64,000 bases of DNA from Candidatus Woesearchaeota archaeon. Its GTDB lineage: Archaea; Nanobdellota; Nanobdellia; Woesearchaeales; UBA10216. Under the pieces are notes generated by a model. It worked only from the letters and a program-made list of their open reading frames with translations, did no database searches and was not told where the DNA came from. How positions within the stretch are numbered: the first letter of the stretch is position 1; each line of letters begins with the position of its first letter. Shown in pieces: positions 683-23,716 of the stretch. The stretch is from positions 3,233 to 67,232 of the forward strand of contig JACPBY010000006.1 of assembly GCA_016180065.1 (NCBI GenBank). The letters are read 5' to 3'. The position numbers and the translations under genes are program-made.

Positions 683-928
683 TCAGAACGGGTAGCCAAA
701 GCCAACAATGGCCAGGACTGCGTGCAGGAACACGGACAGCAGGAAAAAGCGCCAGTACCAGCAGTGATGCCTGTAGAATGCCATGAACCATTTCTGCCTT
801 TGGAGGAACTGAGGCCTCCAGCCAAGTATGCAGCGGCAGCTGAAAAGGACAAGAAGCATGCCAATAATGTTTGTGATGCCCAGCATGAATGCCAGCCTGG
901 CAGCAAGGAAAGGGTCTATGAGAGCCAT
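683..928 (-). CDS. small hypothetical membrane protein (about 2 TM helices)
   Basis: The 81-aa translation is strongly hydrophobic and helix-like. Overlapping ORFs in other frames look like low-complexity shadows. Confidence 0.45.
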   Translation of the reverse strand: MALIDPFLAARLAFMLGITNIIGMLLVLFSCRCILGWRPQFLQRQKWFMAFYRHHCWYWRFFLLSVFLHAVLAIVGFGYPF

Positions 929-1020
929 AAGCTATAGCTTCTGGCCAGGCAGCTTTATAAATTTAGTGGGTGAAGGGCGGCGTTAAAGTTCTCTTTGCGG
1001 CTTCAGCCACAGCCACTAGA

Positions 1021-1028
1021 TTTATATA
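1021..1028 (+). promoter_or_regulatory. TATA-like box (TTTATATA) upstream of the 1060 gene
   Basis: A/T box 32 nt upstream of the ATG at 1060. Confidence 0.3.
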
Positions 1029-1059
1029 CCGCTGCCGCTACTAGCGTTGCGAAAGAAAA

Positions 1060-1596
1060 ATGAGGCTGTCAAGGCTTTTGCCACACTCGCTAGTAAAAGA
1101 CTTCGTAAGCCTCACTTATCAGGATGCTGTAAAGAGAAGGCTTGTTACCCCGTTCATTGTTTTTATTTCATTCCTCAGCGCATTTATAGTTACGCGCTTA
1201 TTCAGCTACTCTCTCCCGTCTGTAAACTTCGTAAGCCTCCTGATAGGCAAATACCTCAGGGGGTATTATATCCACCACTTCTACTTCGGCATTGCCCTTC
1301 TTATAGCCTCGAACTGGCTCTCCATTGTGACAAACAGGCAGGGGCCAAAAAACCTTGCGGCAGTGCTCTTTGGCTTTGGGCTGGGGGGCATAGTTGATGA
1401 GATTGGGCTGCTGCTGACCTGCACCTCACCGCAACTGCTCCAATGCAACTATGGAGCAAGAATAACTCTGGACTTCTTCATAATCATTGTCGGAGCTTTC
1501 CTTGCAGTGCTGTACTTCATGCCAGTATGGAGAAGGCTTAGGAGAATTGCCTCACACACCCATGGTGCCATTTACAACAGGATAAGAAGAAACTGA
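1060..1596 (+). CDS. hypothetical integral membrane protein
   Basis: 178 aa with several hydrophobic helices (FIVFISFLSAFIV, FGIALLIASNWL, LFGFGLGGIV, FFIIIVGAFLAVLYF). No family recognised. Confidence 0.65.
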   Translation: MRLSRLLPHSLVKDFVSLTYQDAVKRRLVTPFIVFISFLSAFIVTRLFSYSLPSVNFVSLLIGKYLRGYYIHHFYFGIALLIASNWLSIVTNRQGPKNLAAVLFGFGLGGIVDEIGLLLTCTSPQLLQCNYGARITLDFFIIIVGAFLAVLYFMPVWRRLRRIASHTHGAIYNRIRRN

Positions 1597-10979: not shown

Positions 10980-11001
10980 AAGGCGGAACTGGCTTGGAGA
11001 A

Positions 11002-11009
11002 TTTATAAA
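11002..11009 (-). promoter_or_regulatory. TATA box TTTATAAA, 23 nt upstream of the pfkB-family start codon
   Basis: The same box at the same 23-24 nt spacing recurs at several other genes in the window. Confidence 0.45.
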
Positions 11010-11024
11010 TGTTTCTTCACCCGC

Positions 11025-11777
11025 TCAAAACACCAGCCCACCTGTAAGAAGCAGGCCAATGCCGTAAGAAGCGGCAGCCGCAACAAGCCCGATGGCCATC
11101 ATCTCCATGCCGCTGACGAGCCAGTTTTTTTTCGTAAAAAATGTGCGGGCTGCGCCTCCTGCAAACAAGGTTGCCAACGCGATAGTGATTGCTGCGATAA
11201 CCGCTGCCTGGACACCAAGAGGCAACAGGAACGGGATAACTGGAAGAAAGCCACCAGCTATTGAAGCAAACCCTATGACCACGCCTACGGTAACCGGCTT
11301 GTCAAGCTCCTTTGGGAAGCCAAACTCCTCCGCCCTCATGATATCAAGCCAGCGCTCCTTTGAAGAAGTTATTATTTTCACAATAGAATCAAGCTCCCTG
11401 CCCTTAAAGCCCTTGGCAGAGTAAAATTCCCTGACTTCCTGCTTCTCCCATTCAGGAAACTTCTCCAAATGCTCTTTTTCCTTCCTAAGCTCCTGCTCGT
11501 AGAACTCGTTCTGGGACTTTGTTGAAAGGTAGCCGCCAAGCGTCATCGAAATGGTCTCACCAAGCAGGCCAGCCATGGCTGAAAGCAGGATGATGGACTT
11601 GTTGCCAAGAACGCTTACTCCAGCAATTATGCCAATGACCGTAACTATGCCATCCTGAATGCCAAAAACAACCTCCCTTATCAGCTTGCCTTCCTTGGAG
11701 TGCTCCTCATCACATTCAGGTTTAGGAATGGCATGGCGTTTTGCTGCCTTGGCTGTTGCTGCTACTGCTTTCTTCAT
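11025..11777 (-). CDS. VIT1/CCC1-family iron/manganese transporter
   Basis: Contains VFGIQDGIVTVIGIIAGV, a cytoplasmic helical insert (EQELRKEKEHLEKFPEWEKQEV), and C-terminal TM helices. Confidence 0.85.
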   Translation of the reverse strand: MKKAVAATAKAAKRHAIPKPECDEEHSKEGKLIREVVFGIQDGIVTVIGIIAGVSVLGNKSIILLSAMAGLLGETISMTLGGYLSTKSQNEFYEQELRKEKEHLEKFPEWEKQEVREFYSAKGFKGRELDSIVKIITSSKERWLDIMRAEEFGFPKELDKPVTVGVVIGFASIAGGFLPVIPFLLPLGVQAAVIAAITIALATLFAGGAARTFFTKKNWLVSGMEMMAIGLVAAAASYGIGLLLTGGLVF

Positions 11778-11919
11778 TTTACTACGGTGCTTTGACGGAT
11801 GATGCTTTTAAACTTTCGTGTTTTGTCAAAAACCTTTGGTTTCTGAGCGTGATCAGAAGCGTAAGCTTCTGACATTTAAACAAAAAAGTTTATATAATCT
11901 GTAACAGTTTATAGCGCCC

Positions 11920-12096
11920 ATGAGCGAAGCAGCGATACCTGAGGAGCTTGTTTCCGAAATAAAGGCTATCCGGGCTGATTTGGACTATATTAAGAAGCGC
12001 GTTGTTGATGTAGGCACAGTTCTGACGCAAGATGATACTGAATCTCTGCAGGAAGCTGAAACCGATCTCAAAGAAGGCAAGACAAAAAGGCTCTGA
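11920..12096 (+). CDS. putative antitoxin of the adjacent RelE-like toxin (58 aa, below the ORF-track cutoff)
   Basis: Reads ATG..TGA and ends 2 nt before the toxin start. The C-terminus is LQEAETDLKEGKTKRL. Confidence 0.55.
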   Translation: MSEAAIPEELVSEIKAIRADLDYIKKRVVDVGTVLTQDDTESLQEAETDLKEGKTKRL

Positions 12097-12098
12097 AA

Positions 12099-12359
12099 TT
12101 GTACGCTGTCGAACTATCACAGCGGGCGCAGAAATTCTTGGAAAAACTTGACAGGCACATAAGGGAAAGGATTGAAGAACGACTACGAAATCTTGGTTTC
12201 AACCCCGTCCCAAGTGATACAAAGTTCATTACAAGGGAGGACAAGGATAAGATATTTCGCTACAGGATTGGCGACTACAGGGCTTTGTACAAAGTCAAAG
12301 ATGCCGAGAAAATAATCCTAATGGCAAAAATAGACAAGAGGCCCAGGGCGTATGGTTAA
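12099..12359 (+). CDS. relE: RelE/ParE-family type II toxin
   Basis: 86 aa. LSQRAQKFLEKLDRHIRERIEERL..FRYRIGDYRALYKV..IILMAKIDKR is the typical RelE/StbE pattern. TTG start. Confidence 0.8.
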   Translation: MYAVELSQRAQKFLEKLDRHIRERIEERLRNLGFNPVPSDTKFITREDKDKIFRYRIGDYRALYKVKDAEKIILMAKIDKRPRAYG

Positions 12360-12495
12360 CAGGAAAAAGAGGAGAAGAGCAAAAGCATTTGTAAAAATAA
12401 GCGAAGATAAAGCAAAGTCGTGCATAGATGATGAACTGCTTATGAAGCCTGTGCGCGGGCTGGAGGATATCCGCGCTGGAAGGGTAAAGCGCTAG
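12352..12495 (+). CDS. possible second small ORF (47 aa) overlapping the relE stop (ATGGTTAA)
   Basis: Basic N-terminus NRKKRRRAK. The C-terminus GLEDIRAGRVKR resembles the antitoxin-like C-termini at 11920..12096 and 37715..37855. Confidence 0.3.
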   Translation: MVNRKKRRRAKAFVKISEDKAKSCIDDELLMKPVRGLEDIRAGRVKR

Positions 12496-12555
12496 GAAAA
12501 ACCTGCTCAAACATAAGAACTTCAAACGTGACTGCAGACTTACTGAAAATCCTTT

Positions 12556-13359
12556 TTAAAGTTTAGTTTTTGCCGCCATGTTAAGATTTGCTGCAGACTT
12601 TCGGGCAAAGAAAATCCTCCACAGCATGCAGCCCCCAATAAGTGCCATTGGAATGTTCCAGAACTGCCCCCATGTAAGCCCAAAGGCAAAGTCAGGCACG
12701 TCCTTGACGAACTCAAGGAAAAACCTGATGCTGCCATACAGGAAAACAAACACCCAGAATAGTGTGCCTTTGGGCAGCTTCCATTTCCGCTGCTGCAGCA
12801 GCTGCCACAAGACGACGAAAATAAAAAGATTCTTGATTGCCTCATAAACCTGCACAGGATGCCTGAACTGGGAAATGCTGCCAAACTTCACGCCCCACGG
12901 CAAGCTTGTAGGAGTGCCGTAAAACTCGCCGTTAATAAAATTGGCGATTCTTCCAAGAGCAAGGGCAAGGGCAACAGGGACAACAACAATGTCGGCAAGG
13001 CCATAGAAAGAAAGCTTCTTCCGCTTAGCAAACCAAACGCCAGCAAGGACAAGCCCGATAAAACCGCCATGGAAAGCCATGCCGCCATTCCAGACCGCAA
13101 TGATTTGCACAGGATTTGCAAGGTAAAAGCCCAAAAACGACAGAACATGGCCCAGCCTTGCGCCAACAACAACTGCAACAACCGCGGTTATGAGAAGCTC
13201 GTCAAAATCACGGCTGTTAAGGGGCAACTGCCGCTTCTTCGCCAAATAGCGCATTATAAAGAATGAAAGAAGGATGCCAAATGCAAAAATCAGGCCGTAA
13301 TACCTTATGGAGAAAGGCCCAAACTCAACAAGAACCGGGCTTATGTTGTGGTAAAACAT
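12556..13359 (-). CDS. lgt: prolipoprotein diacylglyceryl transferase (Lgt) homolog
   Basis: Contains FSIRYYGLIFAFGILL, HGGFIGLVLAG, GRIANFINGEFYGTPTSLPWGV, RHPVQVYEAI. The start at MFYHN (13359) is supported by a TATA box 23 nt upstream. The listed ORF extends to 13422. Confidence 0.85.
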   Translation of the reverse strand: MFYHNISPVLVEFGPFSIRYYGLIFAFGILLSFFIMRYLAKKRQLPLNSRDFDELLITAVVAVVVGARLGHVLSFLGFYLANPVQIIAVWNGGMAFHGGFIGLVLAGVWFAKRKKLSFYGLADIVVVPVALALALGRIANFINGEFYGTPTSLPWGVKFGSISQFRHPVQVYEAIKNLFIFVVLWQLLQQRKWKLPKGTLFWVFVFLYGSIRFFLEFVKDVPDFAFGLTWGQFWNIPMALIGGCMLWRIFFARKSAANLNMAAKTKL

Positions 13360-13381
13360 GCTCCTGCCGTCCCGGCCTTGC

Positions 13382-13389
13382 TTTATAAA
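13382..13389 (-). promoter_or_regulatory. TATA box TTTATAAA, 23 nt upstream of the lgt ATG
   Basis: Lies in the 62-nt gap between the dapF stop and the lgt start. Confidence 0.4.
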
Positions 13390-13421
13390 ACTTTTGCTGC
13401 AGCCAGGCAAACCGCCGTGCA

Positions 13422-14309
13422 TTACACCTGCAGCGTGCCTGAAAACACGGATGTTGCGGGCCCGGTCAGGCAGACATGGCTGTCCTTTGCCCAGTCCACA
13501 GTAAGCTCTCCGCCCTTAAGGCAAATTTTTACTTTTCTTCCAGTCAGTTCATTAAGAACACTGGCAACAACTGAAGCACAGGCGCCTGTCCCGCAGGCCA
13601 GTGTTTCCCCAACACCCCTTTCCCAGACCCGAAGCTCAATCTCACTATTGCTTATGACGTGAACGAATTCGACATTGGCCTTCTTTGGGAAAACAGGGTG
13701 GTTCTCAATTTCCTTTCCCAGCTCCTCAATGTCAAAAGCGCCAAGGTCTATATTTGCGCCATCAGTGAACACAACAGCGTGTGGATTGCCCATTGAGACC
13801 GCAGTTATCCTGATTTTCCTGTACTTAAGCTGCAATGCCTCGTTAATTGCCTTGGACTCTGCATTGCCGTTCATCGGAATCTCTTTCCTTATAAGCCCGG
13901 GGGAGCCCATGTCAACCCGGAACATGCCATTTGCGGCGACTATCCTTTTTATTCCGGATGCTGTTTCAATATTCAGTTCCCTGCTCTTGCTGTAAGCATT
14001 ATCGGTCACGAACTTTGCAATGCACCTTATGCCGTTGCCGCACATTTCAGCTTCAGAGCCGTCAGCATTAATTATCCTCATCCGGGCATCACAGCCTTTT
14101 TTCCCGGAAGGCAATGCCAGCAGCACGCCATCAGCCCCGATTCCGAAGTGCCTGTCGCACACGTTCCTTGCAAAAGACTTCAGGTCACTTATTCCTTCAA
14201 ACACCCTGCGGTTGCTGCTGTCAAAAAGGCCTATGACAACGTAATCGTTGCCAAGCCCGTGCATCTTGGAAAACTTAAGCTGAGCAGCCATTTTTAACAG
14301 TTTCCACAA
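13422..14309 (-). CDS. dapF: diaminopimelate epimerase
   Basis: Contains FSKMHGLGNDYVV, the catalytic CGNGIRC and ACGTGACA. Confidence 0.9.
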   Translation of the reverse strand: MWKLLKMAAQLKFSKMHGLGNDYVVIGLFDSSNRRVFEGISDLKSFARNVCDRHFGIGADGVLLALPSGKKGCDARMRIINADGSEAEMCGNGIRCIAKFVTDNAYSKSRELNIETASGIKRIVAANGMFRVDMGSPGLIRKEIPMNGNAESKAINEALQLKYRKIRITAVSMGNPHAVVFTDGANIDLGAFDIEELGKEIENHPVFPKKANVEFVHVISNSEIELRVWERGVGETLACGTGACASVVASVLNELTGRKVKICLKGGELTVDWAKDSHVCLTGPATSVFSGTLQV

Positions 14310-15572
14310 TCAATCCATCCCGAAGAGGACATGAGAAATGTCCTCGCGCTTCCTGATAACCCTTGCTTCCTTTCCATTTACAAGGACTTCTGCAGGCCTT
14401 GGGCGGGAGTTGTAGGTTGACGACATTGAAAAGCCATATGCGCCTGCAACCATGATTGCAAGGACATCACCCTCCCTGATTTTTGGCAGCTTCCGGCCTG
14501 CTATGCCAGACTCATCCCGTGTGAAAACGTCGCCGGACTCGCAAATGTTGCCGCAGACAGCAACAGCCTCCTCTTCAGCGCCTGAGCACTCGGCGAGCTC
14601 AATCGGATGGTAAGAGCCGTATGCCATGGGCCTTATGAGGTGGTTAAAGCCCGTGTCAACCCCAACGAATTTGTGCTTGGGCGTCTGCTTGATCGTGTTG
14701 ACCGTGCAAAGAAGCAGCCCTGACTCAGCAACAATAAAGCGCCCGGGCTCAATAACCAATGCCAATTTCTTTCCAAAGCCGCTGCAGAAGCTGCTGAATG
14801 TGCTGCTTACAGCCTCGCCGAACTGCTTCATGCCAATCGGCTTTTGGCCAGGCCTGTACGGAACTCCAATGCCCCCTCCAAAGTCTATGAACTCAAGGTC
14901 TTTCAGCCTGTCCCTGTTTTTTTCAACAATCTTCAGAAGCACTCCCATCGCTTCCAGAAACTTTGCTGTTTCAAGAATGCCCGAGCCGATATGCTCATGG
15001 ATTCCCACAAATTTCAGGCTGTGCATGGAAGCAATTTCAAACGCTTTAGGGACATCCCCCACCCATATGCCGAACTTGCTATCCGGGCCACCGGTTATGA
15101 CATGGTCATGGTGGCCTGCCCCGACATCAGGATTCACCCTTATGCATACCTTTGAGCCGGGATTCAGCCTGCCGTAGCGCTCAAGCTGAGACAAGGAATC
15201 GCAGTTCACAAGGACTTTTTTATCAATAGCAAATTTCATTTCCTCATCGGTAACGGATGTGGACGTGAACATTACCTGCTCAGGCTTGAAGCCGGCTTTC
15301 AAAGCAGCTTCTATCTCGCCCGGGGAAACTGCATCAACGCCGATATACTCACCGCCTTCCTCCCTAACCAGCTTCAGGATGCTGAGGTTCGTGTTCGCCT
15401 TTGCCGCGTAATAGACCTTCAAAGGCCTGAAAGAGATGCCCCGTGAAAGTTCCCTGACCTTCAGGCGGATTGTCTCCTCATCGTAAACGTAAAGCGGGGT
15501 TCCAAACTTTTTTGCCAGAAGCGAAGCAGGAAGCTCCCCGATAAAAAGCCTGCCTGACTTAATCGAAATCAT
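14310..15572 (-). CDS. lysA: diaminopimelate decarboxylase
   Basis: Fold-III PLP decarboxylase pattern: YYAAKAN, HEHIGSG, DFGGGIGVPY, CGNICESGD. Confidence 0.92.
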   Translation of the reverse strand: MISIKSGRLFIGELPASLLAKKFGTPLYVYDEETIRLKVRELSRGISFRPLKVYYAAKANTNLSILKLVREEGGEYIGVDAVSPGEIEAALKAGFKPEQVMFTSTSVTDEEMKFAIDKKVLVNCDSLSQLERYGRLNPGSKVCIRVNPDVGAGHHDHVITGGPDSKFGIWVGDVPKAFEIASMHSLKFVGIHEHIGSGILETAKFLEAMGVLLKIVEKNRDRLKDLEFIDFGGGIGVPYRPGQKPIGMKQFGEAVSSTFSSFCSGFGKKLALVIEPGRFIVAESGLLLCTVNTIKQTPKHKFVGVDTGFNHLIRPMAYGSYHPIELAECSGAEEEAVAVCGNICESGDVFTRDESGIAGRKLPKIREGDVLAIMVAGAYGFSMSSTYNSRPRPAEVLVNGKEARVIRKREDISHVLFGMD

Positions 15573-16753
15573 TTCAGCGCCTTCCTTATCCTTTGCATTG
15601 CCTCTTCAAGCCTTGCATCAGGAACAGTAACTGATACCCTAAAGTATCCTTCGCCGTAACTGCCATATGCTGCACCAGGGGTCACAACCACGCCAGCCTT
15701 TTCAAGCATGAGCGCTGCAAAGCTGGCTGATGTGTGGCCCTCCGGAACCCTGCACCACATGTAAAATGTTGCCCTGGGCTTTCTTACAGCGATGCCAACG
15801 CCGGTTAAGGTTTCGTAAACCAGGTCCCTTCTCTTCTGATAAATGCTGTTGAGCCGGTCAATCTCTGAATCCGGCGTTTTAAGCAAGGCGGTTATCGCAG
15901 CGCGCTGAACACCGTTGAACACGCCTGAATCAACGTTGTTCTTGACAGTGGCAATGGCTGAGATTATGTCCTCACTGCCAACAGCCATACCTATGCGCCA
16001 GCCTGTCATGTTGTAAGGCTTTGAGAGCGAATTAAGCTCCACACCCACTTCCTTGGCGCCGGGCACTTCCAAAAAGCTCAGGGGCCTGTAGCCGTCAAAG
16101 GCAATCTCGCTGTAAGGGTTGTCAGAGCAGACTATCATGCTGTTGTCCCTTGCAAAATCAACAACCTCCCTGTAAAACTCCTTTCCAGCCACGGCTGTCG
16201 TAGGGTTGTTTGGATAACTCACATACAGGATTTTCGCTTTTTTCACAACCTCCCGGGGAATCCTGCCAAGCTGCGGCAAAAAGTCATTGGCTTCAAGCAG
16301 CGGAAGGTCGTGAACAAGGCCGTTGGCAAGAAGCGTGCCTGTCCTGTAAGGGGTATAACACGGATTAGGGACAAGGGCGTAATCACCCGGGTTTACAAAC
16401 GCAAGCGAAAGATGAAGGCTGCCTTCTTTTGAGCCTATCAGCGTGAGGACTTCACTGACAGGGTCAAGCGAGACATTATGCCTTCGCTTATACCACGACG
16501 CAACAGCCTCCCTGAACTCAAGCAGCCCCTCATAGTCAGGGTACTGGTGGTTTCTGGGGTCATTCGCTGCCCTTCCCAGCTCATCAACTATGTGCTTCGG
16601 GGTTGGCATGTCAGGGTCGCCAATGCCCAGGCTTATGACATCAACACCACTCTTCTTAGCCTGCTCAACCTTCCTGCTTATCTCGGCAAAAAGATAGGGC
16701 GGAATCTGCTGAAGCCTTCCTGAACGGATGTATTTAGGCATGGCTACAACCAC
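15569..16753 (-). CDS. dapL: LL-diaminopimelate aminotransferase-type class I aminotransferase
   Basis: Contains IPPYLFAEI, SLGIGDPDMPTP, NPNNPT, SLSKPYNMTGWRIG. Sits in an operon that lacks dapD/dapE. An alternative start is MPKYI at 16741. Confidence 0.75.
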   Translation of the reverse strand: MVVAMPKYIRSGRLQQIPPYLFAEISRKVEQAKKSGVDVISLGIGDPDMPTPKHIVDELGRAANDPRNHQYPDYEGLLEFREAVASWYKRRHNVSLDPVSEVLTLIGSKEGSLHLSLAFVNPGDYALVPNPCYTPYRTGTLLANGLVHDLPLLEANDFLPQLGRIPREVVKKAKILYVSYPNNPTTAVAGKEFYREVVDFARDNSMIVCSDNPYSEIAFDGYRPLSFLEVPGAKEVGVELNSLSKPYNMTGWRIGMAVGSEDIISAIATVKNNVDSGVFNGVQRAAITALLKTPDSEIDRLNSIYQKRRDLVYETLTGVGIAVRKPRATFYMWCRVPEGHTSASFAALMLEKAGVVVTPGAAYGSYGEGYFRVSVTVPDARLEEAMQRIRKALK

Positions 16754-17372
16754 CAGTTTCTTGTTTGCCTATTGCTGCCAAGTAGTTATGTACTCGCGCT
16801 CTGAGGTAGCCCAGTTCATTCTTCCCTGCACCGCCGGTTGGTGCTGTTAGGCCTTTGGCCAGAGCCTCAACAAAAAGACAACTAATGACGGTCTGCGAAA
16901 GCACAAGCGAAGGCCTGTGTGCCTCGACAATACCGGGCCAGTCAATTTCCCGCATTCTGGGGGGTGTGAAGATTGCTGCCCTGGCCAAGCCGAGTCCATA
17001 GCGCCCAAGATAAGAAGCAATCTCGTGCATTCCCTGACTGTTATGCCCATCCATGGCTGCGCCGATACAAGCAAGAAACTCTCCGAAGCGCCCAAGCTCT
17101 GCGCTGGGCCATGCGCCTGTGCCATAACGCTGGACGCCTATAAGGGCAAGCTGAAGCTGTTCCAAGCTCATAAGTGCAGAGTGCAACGGCGGAAGAATAT
17201 CGCTAACGCCTTCAATGCCCTTGTCAACAGCCTCGGCAGCCGTGAAAATCGCAGTCTCACGCATGAGGGCAAAGCAAAAGGCAACCCTTTTTTCAAGGGC
17301 ACCAACTCCCCTATTCCCATGTCTCTCCCTCTTTTTACTTGCATCACGGTACCAAGCATGATAACCTGCCAT
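16734..17372 (-). CDS. hypothetical protein embedded in the lysine operon
   Basis: 212 aa with globular A/G/L-rich composition. Its ATG shares one nt with the asd stop (TAATG). No family recognised. Confidence 0.55.
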   Translation of the reverse strand: MAGYHAWYRDASKKRERHGNRGVGALEKRVAFCFALMRETAIFTAAEAVDKGIEGVSDILPPLHSALMSLEQLQLALIGVQRYGTGAWPSAELGRFGEFLACIGAAMDGHNSQGMHEIASYLGRYGLGLARAAIFTPPRMREIDWPGIVEAHRPSLVLSQTVISCLFVEALAKGLTAPTGGAGKNELGYLRARVHNYLAAIGKQETGGCSHA

Positions 17373-18445
17373 TAACTTATCAACCTCTTAGCCTTAAGGA
17401 GCTCTGCGTTCAGTATGCCGCCGCCGGCTGCTCCCCTTATCATGTTGTGCGAAAGGCCCACAAACCTGTAGTCAAGCACGTTGCATTCCCTCAACCTGCC
17501 GACAGTAACTGCCATCCCCTTCCCGTTATCCCGGTCATACCTTGTCTGCGGCCTGTCCGGCTCAACTTTATAAATTATCGGCTTCTCGGGAGCCATGGGC
17601 AGCTTCAGCTCCTGCGGAGCAGCCCTGAAATTGCGCCATGCCTCAATCACCTGCTCCTTATCCGGCTTTTTCTCGAACTGGACAGAAACGCATGCCATAT
17701 GGCCATCCATGACCGGAACGCGGTTGCAATGCGCAGAGATGACAGGCCCTGTTGCATGGACAATCTCCTTGCCTGAAACGCTGCCAAGAATCTTGAGCGG
17801 CTCACGTTCAGACTTTTCCTCCTCACCTTTAATAAAAGGTATGATATTGTCCTCTATGTCAATAGTGCCAAAGCTTGAATGCCCTCCCCCGCTTATCGCC
17901 TGCATTGTTGCAATAACGGCTTTCTTCACCTTAAACTTCTTGTGAAGGGCAAAGAGAGGAGTCATGTAGCACTGCAGGGAGCAGTTGGGCTTGACAGCAA
18001 TAAAGCCCTTATTCCAGTTCCTGTTTTTCTGCTGTATCCTGATAATTTCAATATGCTCGGGGTTTATTTCCGGAATCAGCATGGGAACATCTTTAGTGAA
18101 GCGGTGGGCTGAGGCGTTTGACACGACAGGAATGCCTGCTCCGGCATACTTCTCCTCGAACTGCATTGCAGCCTCCGACTCAAGCGCTGAGAAAACAAAG
18201 CTGCACGCCTTCCCTGCAGAACCGATGTCATCAACGTTATGCACAACCAAATCCCGGGCATTTTCCGGGATTGGCTGCTTTAAGTGCCATCGTCCCTCAA
18301 CAGCTTCATGGTATTTCTTTCCGGCAGAGCGCTCAGAAGCCGCAAGGTAGCCAACCTCAAACCACGGATGGCTTTCCAGAAGATGAATGTAGGTCCTCCC
18401 TACCATCCCTGTTGCTCCCAAAACCCCGACTTTGATTTTGCGCAT
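17372..18445 (-). CDS. asd: aspartate-semialdehyde dehydrogenase
   Basis: Contains KVGVLGATGMVGR, the active-site KPNCSLQC, and SAHCNRVPVMDGH. Confidence 0.92.
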   Translation of the reverse strand: MRKIKVGVLGATGMVGRTYIHLLESHPWFEVGYLAASERSAGKKYHEAVEGRWHLKQPIPENARDLVVHNVDDIGSAGKACSFVFSALESEAAMQFEEKYAGAGIPVVSNASAHRFTKDVPMLIPEINPEHIEIIRIQQKNRNWNKGFIAVKPNCSLQCYMTPLFALHKKFKVKKAVIATMQAISGGGHSSFGTIDIEDNIIPFIKGEEEKSEREPLKILGSVSGKEIVHATGPVISAHCNRVPVMDGHMACVSVQFEKKPDKEQVIEAWRNFRAAPQELKLPMAPEKPIIYKVEPDRPQTRYDRDNGKGMAVTVGRLRECNVLDYRFVGLSHNMIRGAAGGGILNAELLKAKRLIS

Positions 18446-18522
18446 TTCTTCCCCATTCCTTCATATGGCGGCGTCTATCAGCCGTATTAAAACTTATCGC
18501 ATTATTCGCATAAGGCCAATGC

Positions 18523-19275
18523 TCACCTGAAAAAATCGCTTATGAAGTCGTTCATGGTGAAAAAGCCCTTCCTGCCCTTAAGCCATTCAGCAGCCATCAC
18601 TGCCCCCAATGCAAAACCCGCCCTGCTCCTCGCAGTATGCTTAAGCTCTATTGTATCTGCCTCGCTGTCAAACGCGGCAACATGGGTGCCTGGAACCCAT
18701 CCGCCCCTGACGCTTGCGAAGTGAAGCTCCTCAGGATTTATTTTGCGGTCGAGCTTGCCATACTGCACCTGTTTCTTCCTGCTGATGTTCTTCAGCAAAA
18801 TTTCTGCAATGCTCTTTGCAGTCCCTGACGGGCTGTCAATTTTCTGGTTATGGTGAAGCTCATAGCCGAAAACGTCGTATTCCGGAACCTTATTTATCAG
18901 CCTGGCAGCTGCCTCCACAATCCTGTAAAAAACATTCACCCCAACTGAAAAGTTTGGGCTGTAAATAAAGCCTGTTCCAGCTGCCCCAACAAGCTGCTTT
19001 GCCTCTGTCATGCCGTCATACCACCCTGTTGTTCCGACAACCATGTTCTTCCTGGCAGCCGTAACCCTACGTATGTTGTCAACGACAGCAGAAGGCACTG
19101 TAAAGTCAATAACCACATCAGCATCCTTAAGGCAGCTGCTTTTGACATCAATCGCCTTGTGCGTTGCCCCGGCATCTGTGCTGTCAACAATTACGCAGAC
19201 TGCATGGCCGCGCAGCTTTGCAACCCGCTCAACCTCCTTTCCCATCTTTCCGTAACCAACAAGAGCTATTTTCAT
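18523..19275 (-). CDS. dapB: 4-hydroxy-tetrahydrodipicolinate reductase
   Basis: Contains MKIALVGYGKMG, VIDFTVPS, VVGTTGW, ELHHNQKIDSPSGTA. Confidence 0.9.
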   Translation of the reverse strand: MKIALVGYGKMGKEVERVAKLRGHAVCVIVDSTDAGATHKAIDVKSSCLKDADVVIDFTVPSAVVDNIRRVTAARKNMVVGTTGWYDGMTEAKQLVGAAGTGFIYSPNFSVGVNVFYRIVEAAARLINKVPEYDVFGYELHHNQKIDSPSGTAKSIAEILLKNISRKKQVQYGKLDRKINPEELHFASVRGGWVPGTHVAAFDSEADTIELKHTARSRAGFALGAVMAAEWLKGRKGFFTMNDFISDFFR

Positions 19276-19288
19276 TTCACTACCCTCC

Positions 19289-20188
19289 TCACTTCAAAAT
19301 GCCCATCTTCTGCAGCGCAGCCTTCAGCTTATCCATGTTGGCAGGCTGCATCTCGCACAGCGGCATCCTTAGCGGGCCAGCAGGCAGGCCTGCAAGGCCC
19401 ATTGCCGCCTTAATCGGAATAGGGTTCGTTTCTACAAATGCAGCCTTAAAAATCGGGAGCATTTCAAAATGCAGCTTCCTTGCTGCCGCGAAATCTCCCC
19501 TGGCTGCGGCTGCACACATATCGCCAACCTTCCTGGGGACGAGGTTGCTGACTACAGATATAACCCCCCTGCCTCCCATGGACATCAGCGGCAATGTCAG
19601 GTTGTCATCACCGCTCACAACACTGAACGTATTTGGGAACTGGTCCAGGACATCCATCATCTGCGCGAGGTTTCCTGAAGCCTCCTTTACAGCAATGATG
19701 TTTGGCACCTGTGCCATCCTCAGTAATGTAGCTGTCTCAATGTTAACACCAGTGCGGCCCTGAATGTTGTAGACGACAACAGGAATGCTGATGGATTCTG
19801 CAATTGCCCTGAAATGCCTGTAAAGCCCCTCCTGAGTGGGCTTGTTATAGTAAGGCGAAACAACAAGCACTGCATCTGCTCCCAATTCCTCAGCCTGCCG
19901 GGACAGCTCAACCGAATGGGCTGTTGAGTTGGTGCCTGTGCCCACAATGACCGGAACCTTTCCTTTCGCGGCAGCCACAACTGTTTTTATTATGGCGTCC
20001 CTCTCATCCCCGCTGATTGTAGGGCTCTCACCTGTGGTGCCAAGAGGCACAAGCCCTGATATGCGGTTGCCAACCTGGAACTGCACGTTCTTCTTCAGGC
20101 CTTCAACATCAAGCTCACCGCCTTGCGTGAAAGGTGTTACCATCGCGGTTATTGCACCTTCAACCCTGACATTCTTTTTCATCAGCAT
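19289..20188 (-). CDS. dapA: 4-hydroxy-tetrahydrodipicolinate synthase
   Basis: Contains ITAMVTPF, GTTGESPT, VIVGTGTNST, YYNKPTQEGL, IIAVKEASGN. Confidence 0.92.
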   Translation of the reverse strand: MLMKKNVRVEGAITAMVTPFTQGGELDVEGLKKNVQFQVGNRISGLVPLGTTGESPTISGDERDAIIKTVVAAAKGKVPVIVGTGTNSTAHSVELSRQAEELGADAVLVVSPYYNKPTQEGLYRHFRAIAESISIPVVVYNIQGRTGVNIETATLLRMAQVPNIIAVKEASGNLAQMMDVLDQFPNTFSVVSGDDNLTLPLMSMGGRGVISVVSNLVPRKVGDMCAAAARGDFAAARKLHFEMLPIFKAAFVETNPIPIKAAMGLAGLPAGPLRMPLCEMQPANMDKLKAALQKMGILK

Positions 20189-21568
20189 TCACCCCCTAAC
20201 GCTTATAGCAGCAGACTGCCGCTTAACAGGCTGCTTTACCGAAGCAAAAAACTCGCCATGCAGCGCCCTGACAGCGCCATCAACGCTCTTCTCGCTGACA
20301 ACAAGCCCCATATTGACATCATTGTGGCTTTGCGAAGTCATTTCCACGTTTATGCCGCTCTTCCCGAGGACAGAGGATATCCTCCCTCCAACCCCCGGCA
20401 TGGACTTAATGCCTTCGCCCACTATGCACAGCGAAGCCCTGTCAGCCAGGACTGTAACAGCTGCAAACTCCTTGAGCTTTTCAACAAGCCCTGAAACGTC
20501 AAACCTCTTCTCCACAGTAACAGAAACATTGACTTCTGATGTTGCAATCATGTCAACCGGAACTTTAAACTCGTCAAAAAGCCTGAACACATGATGAAGG
20601 AAGCCGTAAGCCATAAGCATCCTTGCAGAGTTGATGTTGATTACATAGACTCCTTTCTTGCAGGTTATGGCAGTAATCTCGCCCTTTTCAGTGCTGTTCT
20701 TCAGGATGAGCGTTCCAGTGCCTGAAGGGTTGAAAGTGTTAAGCACCCTTACAGGTATGTTCCCGTTCATGGCAGGCAGTATTGTCTTTGGATGCAGGAC
20801 TTTTGCCCCAAAATATGCAAGCTCGCTCGCTTCCTCAAATGAAACAATGCTGACAGTCCTTGCCTCGGGCACAATTCTCGGGTCGGCAGTCATAATGCCG
20901 TCCACATCTGTCCAAATCTGGATTTCCTCCGCTTTAAGGGCGGCCCCGTAAATCGCTGCAGTGTAATCACTCCCTCCCCTGCCCAAGGTTGTTATGTCAC
21001 CATCCTCAGTCCTGCCAATGAAGCCTGTGACAACCGGAACAACACCTGAAGGCAGCTTTGCAACAGACGAAGCGATAGCTTCGAAGGTCTTTGGCAGTAT
21101 TTCCGCGCTCCCAAAATTCTTATCCGTAACCATGCCAAGGTCGTAAGCGTTGAATGCCTCAGCCTTCAAACCTGATTTTCTGGCAAAGGCAGCAACAATC
21201 CTTGACGACATCCTCTCGCCAAAAGAAGCAACGTGGTCTGTTGTCCTCAAGGTAAGCTCGCCGACAAGCGAGATTCCAAAAAGGACATGCTCAAGCTCCG
21301 CAACCTCACCAGATATGATGCTGCTGCCAAGCCCGAGCTTTCCCGCAACTGCCATGTGCCTTGCTTCAATTTCAGAAACAATGCCCTTGACAGATGCTTT
21401 CCTGCCCAAAGCCTCCCTGGCTGCTGCGAGCAGCATGTCAGTAACGCCTGAAATAGCGGAAACAACGACAAATGGGTTCCGGCTCCTGGCAGCCCTGACC
21501 CTATCAACAACGCGCCTGATGCTCTCAGCAGTGCCGACAGATGTCCCCCCAAACTTCATCACAATCAT
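20189..21568 (-). CDS. lysC: aspartate kinase
   Basis: Contains VMKFGGTSVG, GRGGSDYTA, WTDVDGIMTADPR, and C-terminal ACT repeats. Its stop abuts the dapA start. Confidence 0.92.
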   Translation of the reverse strand: MIVMKFGGTSVGTAESIRRVVDRVRAARSRNPFVVVSAISGVTDMLLAAAREALGRKASVKGIVSEIEARHMAVAGKLGLGSSIISGEVAELEHVLFGISLVGELTLRTTDHVASFGERMSSRIVAAFARKSGLKAEAFNAYDLGMVTDKNFGSAEILPKTFEAIASSVAKLPSGVVPVVTGFIGRTEDGDITTLGRGGSDYTAAIYGAALKAEEIQIWTDVDGIMTADPRIVPEARTVSIVSFEEASELAYFGAKVLHPKTILPAMNGNIPVRVLNTFNPSGTGTLILKNSTEKGEITAITCKKGVYVININSARMLMAYGFLHHVFRLFDEFKVPVDMIATSEVNVSVTVEKRFDVSGLVEKLKEFAAVTVLADRASLCIVGEGIKSMPGVGGRISSVLGKSGINVEMTSQSHNDVNMGLVVSEKSVDGAVRALHGEFFASVKQPVKRQSAAISVRG

Positions 21569-21728
21569 TCAAAACACTTTCCCGCCACCAGCCATGCTGA
21601 AACAGCTTTTTGACTATTTAAAGCTTTATCCTGCCATGCGCAACAAAAAGCGGCAGAAGAAGCAACGGTGGCAGCTATTAAAACCTGATGTTATTAAAAT
21701 AACAAAATTTAAATATAAATGTTATTAC

Positions 21729-22406
21729 ATGCCTAATTCGATGGTAACTGCAAGCGCTGTCGTGAAGAAAATAGTGAATGAGAAGCCTTTGCTTCAGGAA
21801 GGGCTCAGGCAAGGCATAATCAGCTTTGCAGCACTTGCTGAAAGGATAAAGCCGCAGGTGGAGATGCAGCTTGGAACAAAAGTGAAGGATGCGGCTGTTG
21901 TAATGGCGCTCAGAAGGCACAGCGAAAGCCTCAGGGCAAGCGACGTCAAAAGGATAAGGTTTGCACCGCATACCCAGCTGACGCTCAAAACAAACCTTGT
22001 TTATTTCTCTGCGAAAAGGAGCGGGGAGCTGTTCAGGAAGCTTGAGGCGCTCTACAAGTCCTTCGACTATGAATCCGGCGAGACATTCAACGTCATACAC
22101 GGCAATCATGAGGTTTCGATAATTGCGAATGACAGGCACGAGAAGAAAGTTGCAGCTGCCATTGGCGAGGAGCACATATCAACCATGGGGAAGAATCTCG
22201 TATCCGTATCAATGAGCCTTGAAAAGGACTTTCTTTACACGCCGGGGGTTATTTTTGCAGCAACCAGGAAGCTCTACTGGGACAACATCAACATATTCGA
22301 GCTGGTTACGACAGCAACAGAACTCACATTCATATTCCAGAAGAAGGACGCCATGAGGGCGTATGCGTCGCTGGAGGAGCTGACCGGACGAAGTGACCCA
22401 GAATAG
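21729..22406 (+). CDS. hypothetical protein, possibly ACT-like (ligand-binding), divergent from lysC
   Basis: The real coding part of listed ORF 21150..22406 starts at the ATG at 21729 (MPNSMV). The upstream part is antisense to lysC. The ACT-like assignment is by eye only (VSIIANDRHEKKV, ELTFIFQKKDAMRAYASLEEL). Confidence 0.55.
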   Translation: MPNSMVTASAVVKKIVNEKPLLQEGLRQGIISFAALAERIKPQVEMQLGTKVKDAAVVMALRRHSESLRASDVKRIRFAPHTQLTLKTNLVYFSAKRSGELFRKLEALYKSFDYESGETFNVIHGNHEVSIIANDRHEKKVAAAIGEEHISTMGKNLVSVSMSLEKDFLYTPGVIFAATRKLYWDNINIFELVTTATELTFIFQKKDAMRAYASLEELTGRSDPE

Positions 22407-22599
22407 ATCTGATTAAATACTTGTTCTGTTTTAAGAAAACACTCAAATCAGTTGATGAGCGCAGTAGGGCTCACTCAAATTTGTGATCCTTAATGTTGAG
22501 GGCAGGTTTCCAGCCGCCGAATTACTTTATACCAAAAAATAGGTGGTTGAATACCTAAAAATAGGTAGATATTTAAATAAGCCCCGCTTTACAGCACCC

Positions 22600-23214
22600 A
22601 TGCTTACAAAAGAACAGTTAAACATCCTTTCCGTATTCAAGAAGGACATTTTTGCAAACTTGACTTTCAAGCAAATCAAAAAGGGAAGCGGGCAAAAGTC
22701 AAACAACATAGTGCAAATAGCGCTGAAGGAATTCCATAAGCAAGGCATAGTCAAAACAAAAAAAACAGGAGATGTAACCACCTACTGCCTGAACCTCAAC
22801 AATAATCTGGCTTTTTCCTACCTCAACATTGTAAACGAAGCCGAAATCAGCAAGATCGGAATGCCTAAAAGCATTCTATACGACATCAAGAGCAGGATAT
22901 TCAAATATACCGAATTCTTCATTTTAATCCTGTTTGGCAGCCATGCAAAAGGAAAGGCGACCCAAAAATCAGACTTAGATGTTGCAGTAATTGTGGAATC
23001 AGAGCAGACGAAAAAAGAAATCACCCCCTATCTGGAAACAATAAAAAGAAGGGAAGTCATTGCAATAGACTACCACATATTCGCAAGAACCGAATTTTTA
23101 GACATGCTAAAGGCAGATACGGAGAATGTTGGAAAACAGATATTTAAAAGCGGCATTGTTTATCACGGATACATCGCCTATTGCAATCTCATAAGTGAAA
23201 GAAAAAATGAATGA
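22600..23214 (+). CDS. minimal nucleotidyltransferase (MNT) with N-terminal wHTH-like region
   Basis: Contains LFGSHAKGKATQKSDLDVAVIV (the GSxxxG..SDxD motif). The ATG at 22600 (MLTKEQL) is preferred over the listed GTG at 22543. Confidence 0.8.
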   Translation: MLTKEQLNILSVFKKDIFANLTFKQIKKGSGQKSNNIVQIALKEFHKQGIVKTKKTGDVTTYCLNLNNNLAFSYLNIVNEAEISKIGMPKSILYDIKSRIFKYTEFFILILFGSHAKGKATQKSDLDVAVIVESEQTKKEITPYLETIKRREVIAIDYHIFARTEFLDMLKADTENVGKQIFKSGIVYHGYIAYCNLISERKNE

Positions 23215-23716
23215 CGAAACAGAGCTATATCTCCAAAGGGCGGAAAACGAGCTGGTTGCCGCACAATTGCTATTTGACGTTTCGAGCAACCCAACCCTCC
23301 AGAAAGAGCAGTTCAAGTTGGAAAAAGACTTTACATTTTACAGTTCTGTAATCAGCCACTCTTATTACTGCATCTTTTATTCTGCAAAAGCTATATTAAT
23401 CAGGAATGGCATAAAAACAGAAGCTCCGGAAGTTCATAGAAAAACACTCGAAGCATTTGAAACAAGCCTTGTCAGGACTGGGAAGCCCGATGTTGAATTA
23501 TTGAAGATATACCGAAAAATCATTGTCAGGGCAGAGGAGCTGCTGGGCATCTTCTCGAAAGAGAAAGGAAAGAGAGGGCAATTCACCTATCAAAAACTGC
23601 CACAAGCGAACATGGAGCCAGCCAAAGAATCGCTTGATAACGCTTCTTTCTTTTTCAAGAACATTAACCAGATAGCAAGAACGCAGCTCACTCAGAGTCG
23701 TAATCCACAAGGCTGA
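23207..23716 (+). CDS. HEPN-domain protein, partner of the MNT
   Basis: LQRAENELVAAQLLFD..SHSYYCIFYSAKAILIRNGI is typical of HEPN proteins. Its start overlaps the MNT stop (ATGAATGA). Confidence 0.8.
   Translation: MNDETELYLQRAENELVAAQLLFDVSSNPTLQKEQFKLEKDFTFYSSVISHSYYCIFYSAKAILIRNGIKTEAPEVHRKTLEAFETSLVRTGKPDVELLKIYRKIIVRAEELLGIFSKEKGKRGQFTYQKLPQANMEPAKESLDNASFFFKNINQIARTQLTQSRNPQG

Follow-up and report, generated by a model that had tools for sequence, protein, structure and literature searches.

An orphan gene for a predicted helical protein in a variable slot of an archaeal lysine operon

Introduction

Why should an operon that already encodes every step of lysine biosynthesis carry one gene more, locked into the middle of it? 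The question is raised by the window studied here, a stretch of 64,000 nucleotides (nt) from contig JACPBY010000006.1 of Candidatus Woesearchaeota archaeon (assembly GCA_016180065.1), in which the gene that we call ORF212 lies between asd and dapL on the minus strand. An earlier note on this DNA had argued from the position and the translational coupling of the gene for a function tied to the metabolism of lysine or diaminopimelate (DAP), for example as a regulatory subunit, a chaperone or an enzyme acting on a side reaction. We found that ORF212 is a genuine protein-coding gene and that it belongs to a new orphan family of an ordinary kind, one that has no entry in any of the libraries searched. 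On balance, and with some reserve, we favour the view that it specifies a lineage-restricted accessory protein, neither an enzyme nor a pathway step, and that it sits in a slot of the operon that is permissive for genes of different kinds. The data presented here do not decide for or against a link between ORF212 and lysine metabolism.

The gene and its junctions

ORF212 and its two neighbours are placed as follows:

16734..17372, minus strand: ORF212, the orphan gene studied here, for a 212-amino-acid protein predicted to be all-helical (ATG open reading frame, homologues, coding signature, AlphaFold model with a pLDDT of 81.7)
17372..17376, minus strand: junction TAATG, the asd stop codon and the ORF212 start codon with one base (17372) in common (sequence)
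16734..16741, minus strand: junction ATGCCTAA, the 8 nt over which the ATG end of dapL overlaps the stop of ORF212 (sequence; dapL N-terminus aligned with relatives)
17372..18445, minus strand: asd, aspartate-semialdehyde dehydrogenase of the archaeal type, upstream neighbour of ORF212 (Pfam Semialdhyde_dh; NCBIfam asd_EA, TIGR00978)
15569..16741, minus strand: dapL, LL-diaminopimelate aminotransferase, downstream neighbour of ORF212 (Pfam Aminotran_1_2; NCBIfam NF006756)

The list of open reading frames (ORFs) gives ORF212 as an ATG-initiated frame of 212 amino acids (aa) at these coordinates, and both this call and the TAATG junction, in which a single base is shared with the asd stop codon, are as the earlier note described them. 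The other end of the gene has to be redrawn. The note placed the start of dapL 6-20 nt from the ORF212 stop codon; we find that the TAA of ORF212 (16736-16734) lies inside ATGCCTAA, the ATG of which, at 16741, opens MPKYIRSGRLQQ. Because MPKYIRSGRLQQ matches the DapL starts of relatives (MxKYxRSGRLQQ), the two genes overlap by 8 nt. The ORF list offers a GTG at 16753 as well. Tight junctions are a property of the family: in all nine homologous loci the ORF starts at -4 to +1 nt from the asd stop codon, and its own stop codon overlaps the start of dapL in three loci and is separated from it by 6 to ~20 nt in the other six. The well-formed, translationally coupled gene of the earlier note stands.

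A public protein record for this gene, P0001, is 176 aa long (window 16734-17264) and begins at Met37 of ORF212. This call is probably too short and the 212-aa form is favoured, because a conserved motif, LERxVAxCY, lies upstream of Met37 and because the coupled ATG is at 17372.

ORF212 encodes a protein

At the base composition of ORF212 a run of 211 codons would stay open with a probability of 6.7e-5, and the frame was open in only 2 of 20,000 shuffled sequences. Among the six frames that of ORF212 has the highest codon score, 0.14. This is low when set against 377 long ORFs from the same genome, whose 5th percentile is 0.15, and the G+C content of ORF212 by codon position is atypical (0.62/0.49/0.49, compared with about 0.55/0.41/0.57). 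The comparison with relatives is more telling. An uninterrupted frame of 174-231 codons is found in 9/9 homologous loci despite amino-acid identities of 23-53%, and in the closest pair, G008 and G007b (we refer to individual genomes by G numbers), nucleotide identity at the three codon positions is 0.65/0.74/0.52, the order 2>1>3. The ratio of nonsynonymous to synonymous divergence (dN/dS) is 0.34 in this pair (bootstrap 0.22-0.50) and 0.22 between G007a and G004 (bootstrap 0.11-0.39). Since the flanking genes have values of 0.04-0.11, we conclude that the ORF212 protein is under purifying selection and that this selection is relaxed.

This coding signature rules out non-coding DNA as the nature of ORF212. 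The earlier note had named an isolated sequence with non-coding statistics as an outcome that would speak against its proposal; what we found is a set of homologues in which the frame is open at every one of nine loci, with the codon-position signal present in the closest pair.

It is a different proposal that the frame is translated and has no function of its own, being a spacer or a decaying ORF that stays open only so that ribosomes can pass from asd to dapL. The low codon score and the atypical G+C content at third codon positions fit such a spacer, as does the very fast change of the sequence, and the 11-codon mini-ORF found at this junction in G009 (see below) suffices for coupling. We nevertheless regard the proposal as very improbable: dN/dS is 0.22-0.34 with bootstrap upper bounds that do not exceed 0.50, codon positions are conserved in the order 2>1>3, and conserved motifs and a confidently predicted common fold extend across members that are ~24% identical. 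Moreover, there are lineages in which asd abuts dapL, so no spacer is needed.

Distribution of the family

A HMMER search of 1.84 billion cluster representatives at E<=0.001 returned seven proteins, ORF212 itself among them; the six others are 195-221 aa long and 34-40% identical to it, with E values from 2e-19 to 3e-6. A six-frame search of 40 related genomes with the single sequence matched five of the ten from the same genus and none of the 30 from outside it. With a profile of the family, eight of the eleven genomes of the genus match, a count that is circular in that the matching sequences were used to build the profile, and 0/400 other genomes sampled from the order do so. Two further genomes of the genus, G002 and G010, have very divergent ORFs at the same junction, to which hhalign assigns probabilities of 75% (121 columns) and 20%, respectively, against the family profile. 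Word-index searches recovered only ORF212 itself when the single protein was the query and five proteins, itself included, when the family profile was used; ESM Atlas had no usable match. No longer, fused forms of the family were found, which is weak evidence, and the genome was without detectable repeats or paralogues of the region. Rfam gave no match at E<=1 over 11000-23000. Because no homologue was detected outside the genus, be it among the 1.84 billion representatives, the 30 outside genomes or the 400 genomes of the order, ORF212 is classed on sequence comparison as a taxonomically restricted, or orphan, gene of one genus. P0008, a member of the family, is named in NCBI as a hypothetical protein of Candidatus Woesearchaeota archaeon, and we found nothing on the gene in the literature, including passages of 10.1101/2024.10.14.618325 and PMC11606122 (supplements excluded). 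The source assembly comprises 1.06 Mb and is 88% complete, and the DNA of the window is present in four groundwater metagenome runs of one study.

The neighbourhood of the homologues, a survey that had been proposed to see whether they are always found in lysine operons, gives the strongest association possible: the homologue lies between asd and dapL in 9/9 loci whose DNA was examined (the contexts of P0003, P0004, P0005, P0007, P0010 and P0011 fall outside this set). Homologues scattered without a link to lysine genes, the pattern that would have detached the family from the pathway, were not what the survey returned.

A predicted helical bundle with no invariant polar residue

ORF212 has no match to a Pfam or NCBIfam family at E<=0.1, none of 17 family members has a match in PADLOC at E<=1 (a library that covers systems described up to 2023), and PHROGs has no family for it; that no family could be recognised in it from the sequence was therefore a sound observation. 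AlphaFold2 modelled the protein from an alignment of 17 sequences with a predicted local distance difference test (pLDDT) score of 81.7 and a predicted template modelling (pTM) score of 0.76, placing helices at residues 4-17, 25-51, 60-83, 90-108, 113-135, 145-175 and 188-206. A G001-type member of 185 aa that is 24% identical to ORF212 was modelled with a pLDDT of 87.9 and a pTM of 0.85, with the same order of helices and the last one absent. The two models share one alignment and are not independent, and the alignments behind them are shallow (17 and 15 sequences).

Structure prediction, one of the checks that the earlier note had proposed, has thus given confident helical models; the fold comparison that was to accompany it has yielded generic bundles and no significant match. 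Foldseek found nothing at E<=0.001 in the Protein Data Bank (PDB) with either model or in BFVD, where no viral fold matched, and a profile search of PDB sequences returned only designed coiled coils at E>=0.02. The top rows of a wide VIA-align comparison are generic up-down four-helix bundles that cover residues ~20-140, with best Z scores of 8.3 and 9.2 for the two models. For the first model of ORF212 the matches are 8hfc_A and 6grj_G, each at Z 8.3; the other likenesses are 9u78_B (Z 9.2, the top match and a designed bundle), 6zif_A (Z 9.0), 6q6b_B (Z 8.8), 1xg2_B (Z 8.5) and 1rj1_A (Z 8.3). All of them differ from a true match in lying below the noise level of the method for helical bundles, about Z 13, and their sequence identities are 3-12%. 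Two of these structures, 1xg2_B (130 residues, root-mean-square deviation 3.9) and 1rj1_A, are plant pectin methylesterase or invertase inhibitors, a class of four-helix bundles whose N-terminus is extended by helices and which bind a target enzyme; the likeness (Foldseek E 0.93) is within helical-bundle noise.

In a 13-sequence alignment (A1) the invariant columns are L70, A133 and L166 and the near-invariant ones are mostly small or hydrophobic; in the 17-sequence alignment M1 is the sole invariant column. Neither alignment has an invariant polar residue. Since such a residue is missing and the protein is modelled as a plain helical bundle, a role as an enzyme is unlikely, and the side-reaction enzyme that the earlier note had offered as an option loses ground accordingly. 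ORF212 is read as a soluble, non-enzymatic helical protein, a reading that combines the models with the alignments.

Other identities were considered for the protein. A missing or alternative step of the DapL pathway is ruled out, as all seven steps are encoded and no enzyme family matches at E<=0.1. The maximum Kyte-Doolittle mean over 19 residues is 0.96-1.65 in 17/17 members, so hydropathy reveals no membrane-like segment, and on that basis an integral membrane or secreted protein is rejected. Bacterial copper storage proteins (Csp) are four-helix bundles with a core lined by many conserved cysteines; a Csp is ruled out by Z scores of only 8.8-9.0 and by the want of a cysteine-lined core in the ORF212 family, whose members have 1-6 cysteines, none of them conserved. 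A regulator of the GerE/LuxR helix-turn-helix (HTH) type (PF00196) is likewise rejected: 0/17 members match GerE at E<=1 and the hhalign probability is 0.2%.

The junction is a variable slot

The place between asd and dapL can be emptied. In G009 the two genes are separated by 34 nt, which encode a mini-ORF of 11 codons. Both the start of the G001-type gene and its final residues, GGLQVK, are retained in it, together with the ATGA overlap with dapL; it is the remnant of an in-frame deletion. In G003 the gap between asd and dapL is 6 nt and dapL is shortened by about 11 N-terminal codons, a second, independent deletion. Two members of the genus have thus deleted the gene and kept asd and dapL, and the operon does not need it.

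The place can also be filled by something else. The junction is empty in the sister-genus genomes G016 and G020, and in other sister genera it is occupied by genes with no relationship to ORF212. G015 has a protein of 287 aa with four tandem GerE/LuxR HTH domains in the slot (L021:2555-3418, E 6.5e-36) and G023 has one of 145 aa with two such domains (L023:774-1211, minus strand). The gene in G023 is an exact presence/absence difference of 436 nt with respect to G021 (L024:2810-2824), and the flanks of the two genomes are 97% identical. A family of ~90 aa with no Pfam match occurs in the slot in two other genera, once in G021 (L024:2541-2825, plus strand) and twice in tandem in G013 (L015:1213-1485 and 908-1192, minus strand); its copies share the motif DFRxGV..E.AL...GLTV and are related at E 9e-10. 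A 175-aa ORF in the slot of G022 has no Pfam family either. ORF212 resembles the GerE/LuxR proteins of G015 and G023 in its position between asd and dapL, in its tight spacing and in its size range, and it differs from them in its long helices, in the lack of an HTH match and in the lack of any similarity at the level of sequence or profile. Kinship with the other occupants was rejected on hhalign probabilities of 0.2% for the protein with four GerE domains, 0.2% for the 175-aa ORF of G022 and 0.05% for the ~90-aa family. With unrelated genes at this junction in sister genera, little about function can be read from position by itself. Of the earlier inference from position and coupling to a role in lysine or DAP metabolism, the premises survive, for the gene is coupled and is in the operon in nine of nine loci; the inference itself is undercut by a gene that can be deleted and by a slot that accommodates unrelated genes.

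The slot is variable in the source metagenomes as well. Many contigs of relatives cover dapL there, at a summed depth of 100-2000, and across ORF212 the organism's own contig is alone, at a depth of 12-81. In all four runs a loose end at 16727 continues into a junction of the G001/G009 type, and in two of the four there is one contig in which dapL is joined to asd by 440 letters, compared with 1037 in the window, which fits an almost empty slot.

Bacterial genomes have defence or integration hotspots, in which variable cargo lies between conserved flanking genes. The arrangement described here is similar in that asd and dapL bracket interchangeable, unrelated genes with sharp boundaries of identity and exact insertions or deletions. 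It is unlike them in being within a housekeeping operon, in holding a single small gene and in showing no integrase, repeats or known defence genes.

Rate of change and probable mosaic history

The contrast between ORF212 and its neighbours is most evident in their rates of change. For DapL every pair of genomes in the genus shows 81-92% identity, and for Asd the values are 85-93% in one clade, 68-77% in the other and 52-57% between the two; the relatives of ORF212 are 23-53% identical. The median length of terminal branches, in changes per site, is 1.27 in the ORF tree, compared with 0.07 for asd and 0.11 for dapL, and ORF212 is estimated from these figures to change at roughly ten times the rate of Asd or DapL. 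So rapid a change is not expected of a fixed subunit of conserved enzymes, and it weakens the option of a regulatory subunit that had been put forward for the gene.

Between G005 and G007b nucleotide identity is ~90% over asd and dapL (flank dS 0.55). The ORF, and precisely the ORF, stands out with an identity of only 0.35-0.55 and a dN of 0.78. On these estimates the divergence of the ORF exceeds the neutral expectation for the same time. The trees of ORF and asd disagree: G008 pairs with G007b in the former, with a support of 97 in the Shimodaira-Hasegawa-like approximate likelihood ratio test (SH-aLRT), and in the latter it pairs with G004 (97) and G005 with G007b (94). G009 combines an asd of clade B with the remnant of an ORF type that is otherwise found beside asd of clade A. 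We infer that ORF alleles, and asd too, have moved between lineages by recombination in the conserved flanks.

A gene engaged in conflict, serving immunity, anti-viral defence or interaction with a host, might behave in this fashion if diversifying or frequency-dependent selection kept it variable and if it were exchanged as a cassette, via its flanks, within a constitutively expressed operon. Such a gene could account for pairs (G005 and G007b being the example) in which the ORF has diverged more than its flanks have at synonymous sites, for boundaries that are sharp at the gene ends and for incongruent trees. Presence and absence within the genus, different states of the slot side by side in the same groundwater metagenomes, and the exact 436-nt difference made by the GerE gene in the same slot could be explained in the same way. 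Against it, neither PADLOC nor PHROGs has a family for the protein, no viral fold matched it at E<=0.001, and the surroundings of ORF212 show no partner gene, no repeats and no sign of a mobile element. By hydropathy the protein has neither a signal peptide nor a membrane segment, and dN/dS is 0.2-0.35 where dS is measurable and not above 1. We consider a conflict gene quite improbable.

Two observations concern asd and strain composition. The genus contains two deeply different asd lineages (window 17372-18445; loci L002-L020), and the asd of the window is closer to those of G022 (another genus, 70-78%, partial matches) and G039 (another family, 61%) than to those of half of its own genus; this suggests that asd was replaced inside the operon by recombination or transfer. 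The G007 assembly has two asd-ORF-dapL segments on separate contigs (L007:1846-2778, minus strand, and L002) whose ORF alleles are 43% identical, and one of the asd copies lacks about 42 internal codons. Contamination of this bin is 4% and it may hold two strains.

Partner of the pathway or passenger in the operon

The main competitor is an accessory of the lysine pathway: a helical, non-catalytic protein with Asd, DapL or a further operon enzyme as its binding partner, acting as a regulatory subunit, an inhibitor or a scaffold, or one that senses lysine or DAP and tunes flux. We judge it unlikely and yet take it seriously, because the family is found exclusively between asd and dapL with its coupling at start and stop conserved, because the protein is under purifying selection, because the GerE/LuxR DNA-binding proteins of sister genera show that the slot can host regulators, and because of the faint likeness, within noise, to a pectin methylesterase inhibitor. 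Its difficulty lies with the proposed partners, which are 81-93% identical within a clade in which ORF212 is at 23-53%, and with a similarity among ORFs that does not follow the two lineages of asd. G003 and G009 have dispensed with the gene and kept the operon; it is absent from all 400 genomes sampled elsewhere in the order, as it is from sister genera that have the same operon; no ligand-binding or HTH family was found in it, the GerE protein scoring 0.2% in hhalign; and the slot is replaceable.

The accessory protein in a permissive slot that we favour belongs to a family that is restricted to the genus, fast-evolving, soluble and all-helical, of about 175-230 aa, with a predicted core in the form of an up-down four-helix bundle, a short helix at the N-terminus and one or two long helices at the C-terminus. 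The gene would occupy a permissive cargo slot at the asd-dapL junction of the DapL-type lysine operon of a groundwater DPANN (Woesearchaeota-like) archaeon; it is translationally coupled with the operon, is predicted to be co-transcribed with it and may ride on its expression. The protein would act by binding a protein or a small ligand, without catalysis, and its alleles have probably been swapped between lineages by recombination via the conserved flanks. Several points weigh against this reading. In nine of nine loci examined the family lies in the lysine operon, and a hitch-hiker might be expected at other sites too; the tight coupling conserved on both sides fits a stoichiometric partner as well as it does cargo. 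The codon usage is atypical, the alignments beneath the structural models are shallow and, as close relatives co-occur in the samples, part of the mosaic pattern could be the product of chimeric metagenome assembly.

ORF212 shares with orphan genes in conserved operons the absence of homologues beyond one genus, fast evolution, atypical codons, a simple helical fold and presence or absence within a clade. It is unlike them in that it keeps to a single junction within an operon for amino-acid biosynthesis and is coupled on both sides.

The lysine operon around ORF212

On the minus strand of the window Pfam and NCBIfam identify the gene string lysC-dapA-dapB-asd-ORF212-dapL-lysA-dapF, followed by an lgt-like gene, and all seven steps of the DapL route are encoded within it; the earlier note's complete operon is thereby confirmed. 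The Asd protein scores 397 bits against asd_EA (cut-off 301) and DapL scores 593 bits against the LL-DAP aminotransferase subfamily NF006756 (cut-off 507). The remaining members are:

18523..21568, minus strand: upstream operon block, lysC, dapA and dapB (Pfam)
20189-21568, minus strand: lysC (Pfam AA_kinase and ACT)
19289-20188, minus strand: dapA (Pfam DHDPS)
18523-19275, minus strand: dapB (Pfam DapB_N/C)
12556..15572, minus strand: downstream block, lysA and dapF, then the lgt-like gene (Pfam)
14310-15572, minus strand: lysA (Pfam Orn_Arg_deC)
13422-14309, minus strand: dapF (Pfam DAP_epimerase)
12556-13422, minus strand: lgt-like gene (Pfam PF01790)

The gene that follows dapF, with base 13422 common to its start and the end of dapF, specifies Lgt, the prolipoprotein diacylglyceryl transferase (PF01790, E 5e-71). 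To find Lgt in an archaeon is unusual, and bacteria may have been its source. Further out, overlapping ORFs of 223 aa and 173 aa at 22543-23716 on the plus strand resemble a nucleotidyltransferase/HEPN pair, and an 86-aa ORF at 12099-12359 on the plus strand resembles a toxin of the RelE/ParE type, both from translations read by eye. Outside the window, G024 (L027) has only a fragment of asd, interrupted by an in-frame TAG, between its lysC and lysA genes; dapL is not adjacent, and the lysine operon of that genome appears to be decaying.

Significance

A lineage with a complete and compact lysine operon is of some interest among DPANN archaea because, according to passages of PMC11606122, amino-acid synthesis is mostly absent from them, and a gene locked inside such an operon is a natural candidate for a component of the pathway. 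Our findings temper that idea, in that ORF212, a real gene though it is, has the behaviour of cargo that can be exchanged at a junction permissive for it. A bolder possibility, to which we attach little weight, is that the archaeal DapL lysine operon is regulated by ORF212 and, in sister genera, by the unrelated slot genes, each of them specific to its lineage and interchangeable with the others, with ORF212 binding Asd or DapL or sensing lysine or DAP. If this were true, ORF212 would be a new kind of helical protein that tunes flux in a genome-reduced DPANN archaeon, and its fast evolution would mirror adaptation to different hosts or nutrient supply. The case cautions that a tight operon position and translational coupling do not by themselves show a shared function. 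Its useful outcomes are the definition of a new orphan family, for which a confident helical model is available, and a clear example of a variable slot within a housekeeping operon, one that has accommodated at least four unrelated gene families and has been emptied by deletion. The variable slot, lying as it does inside a housekeeping operon, is a more interesting by-product of the work than the orphan family itself.

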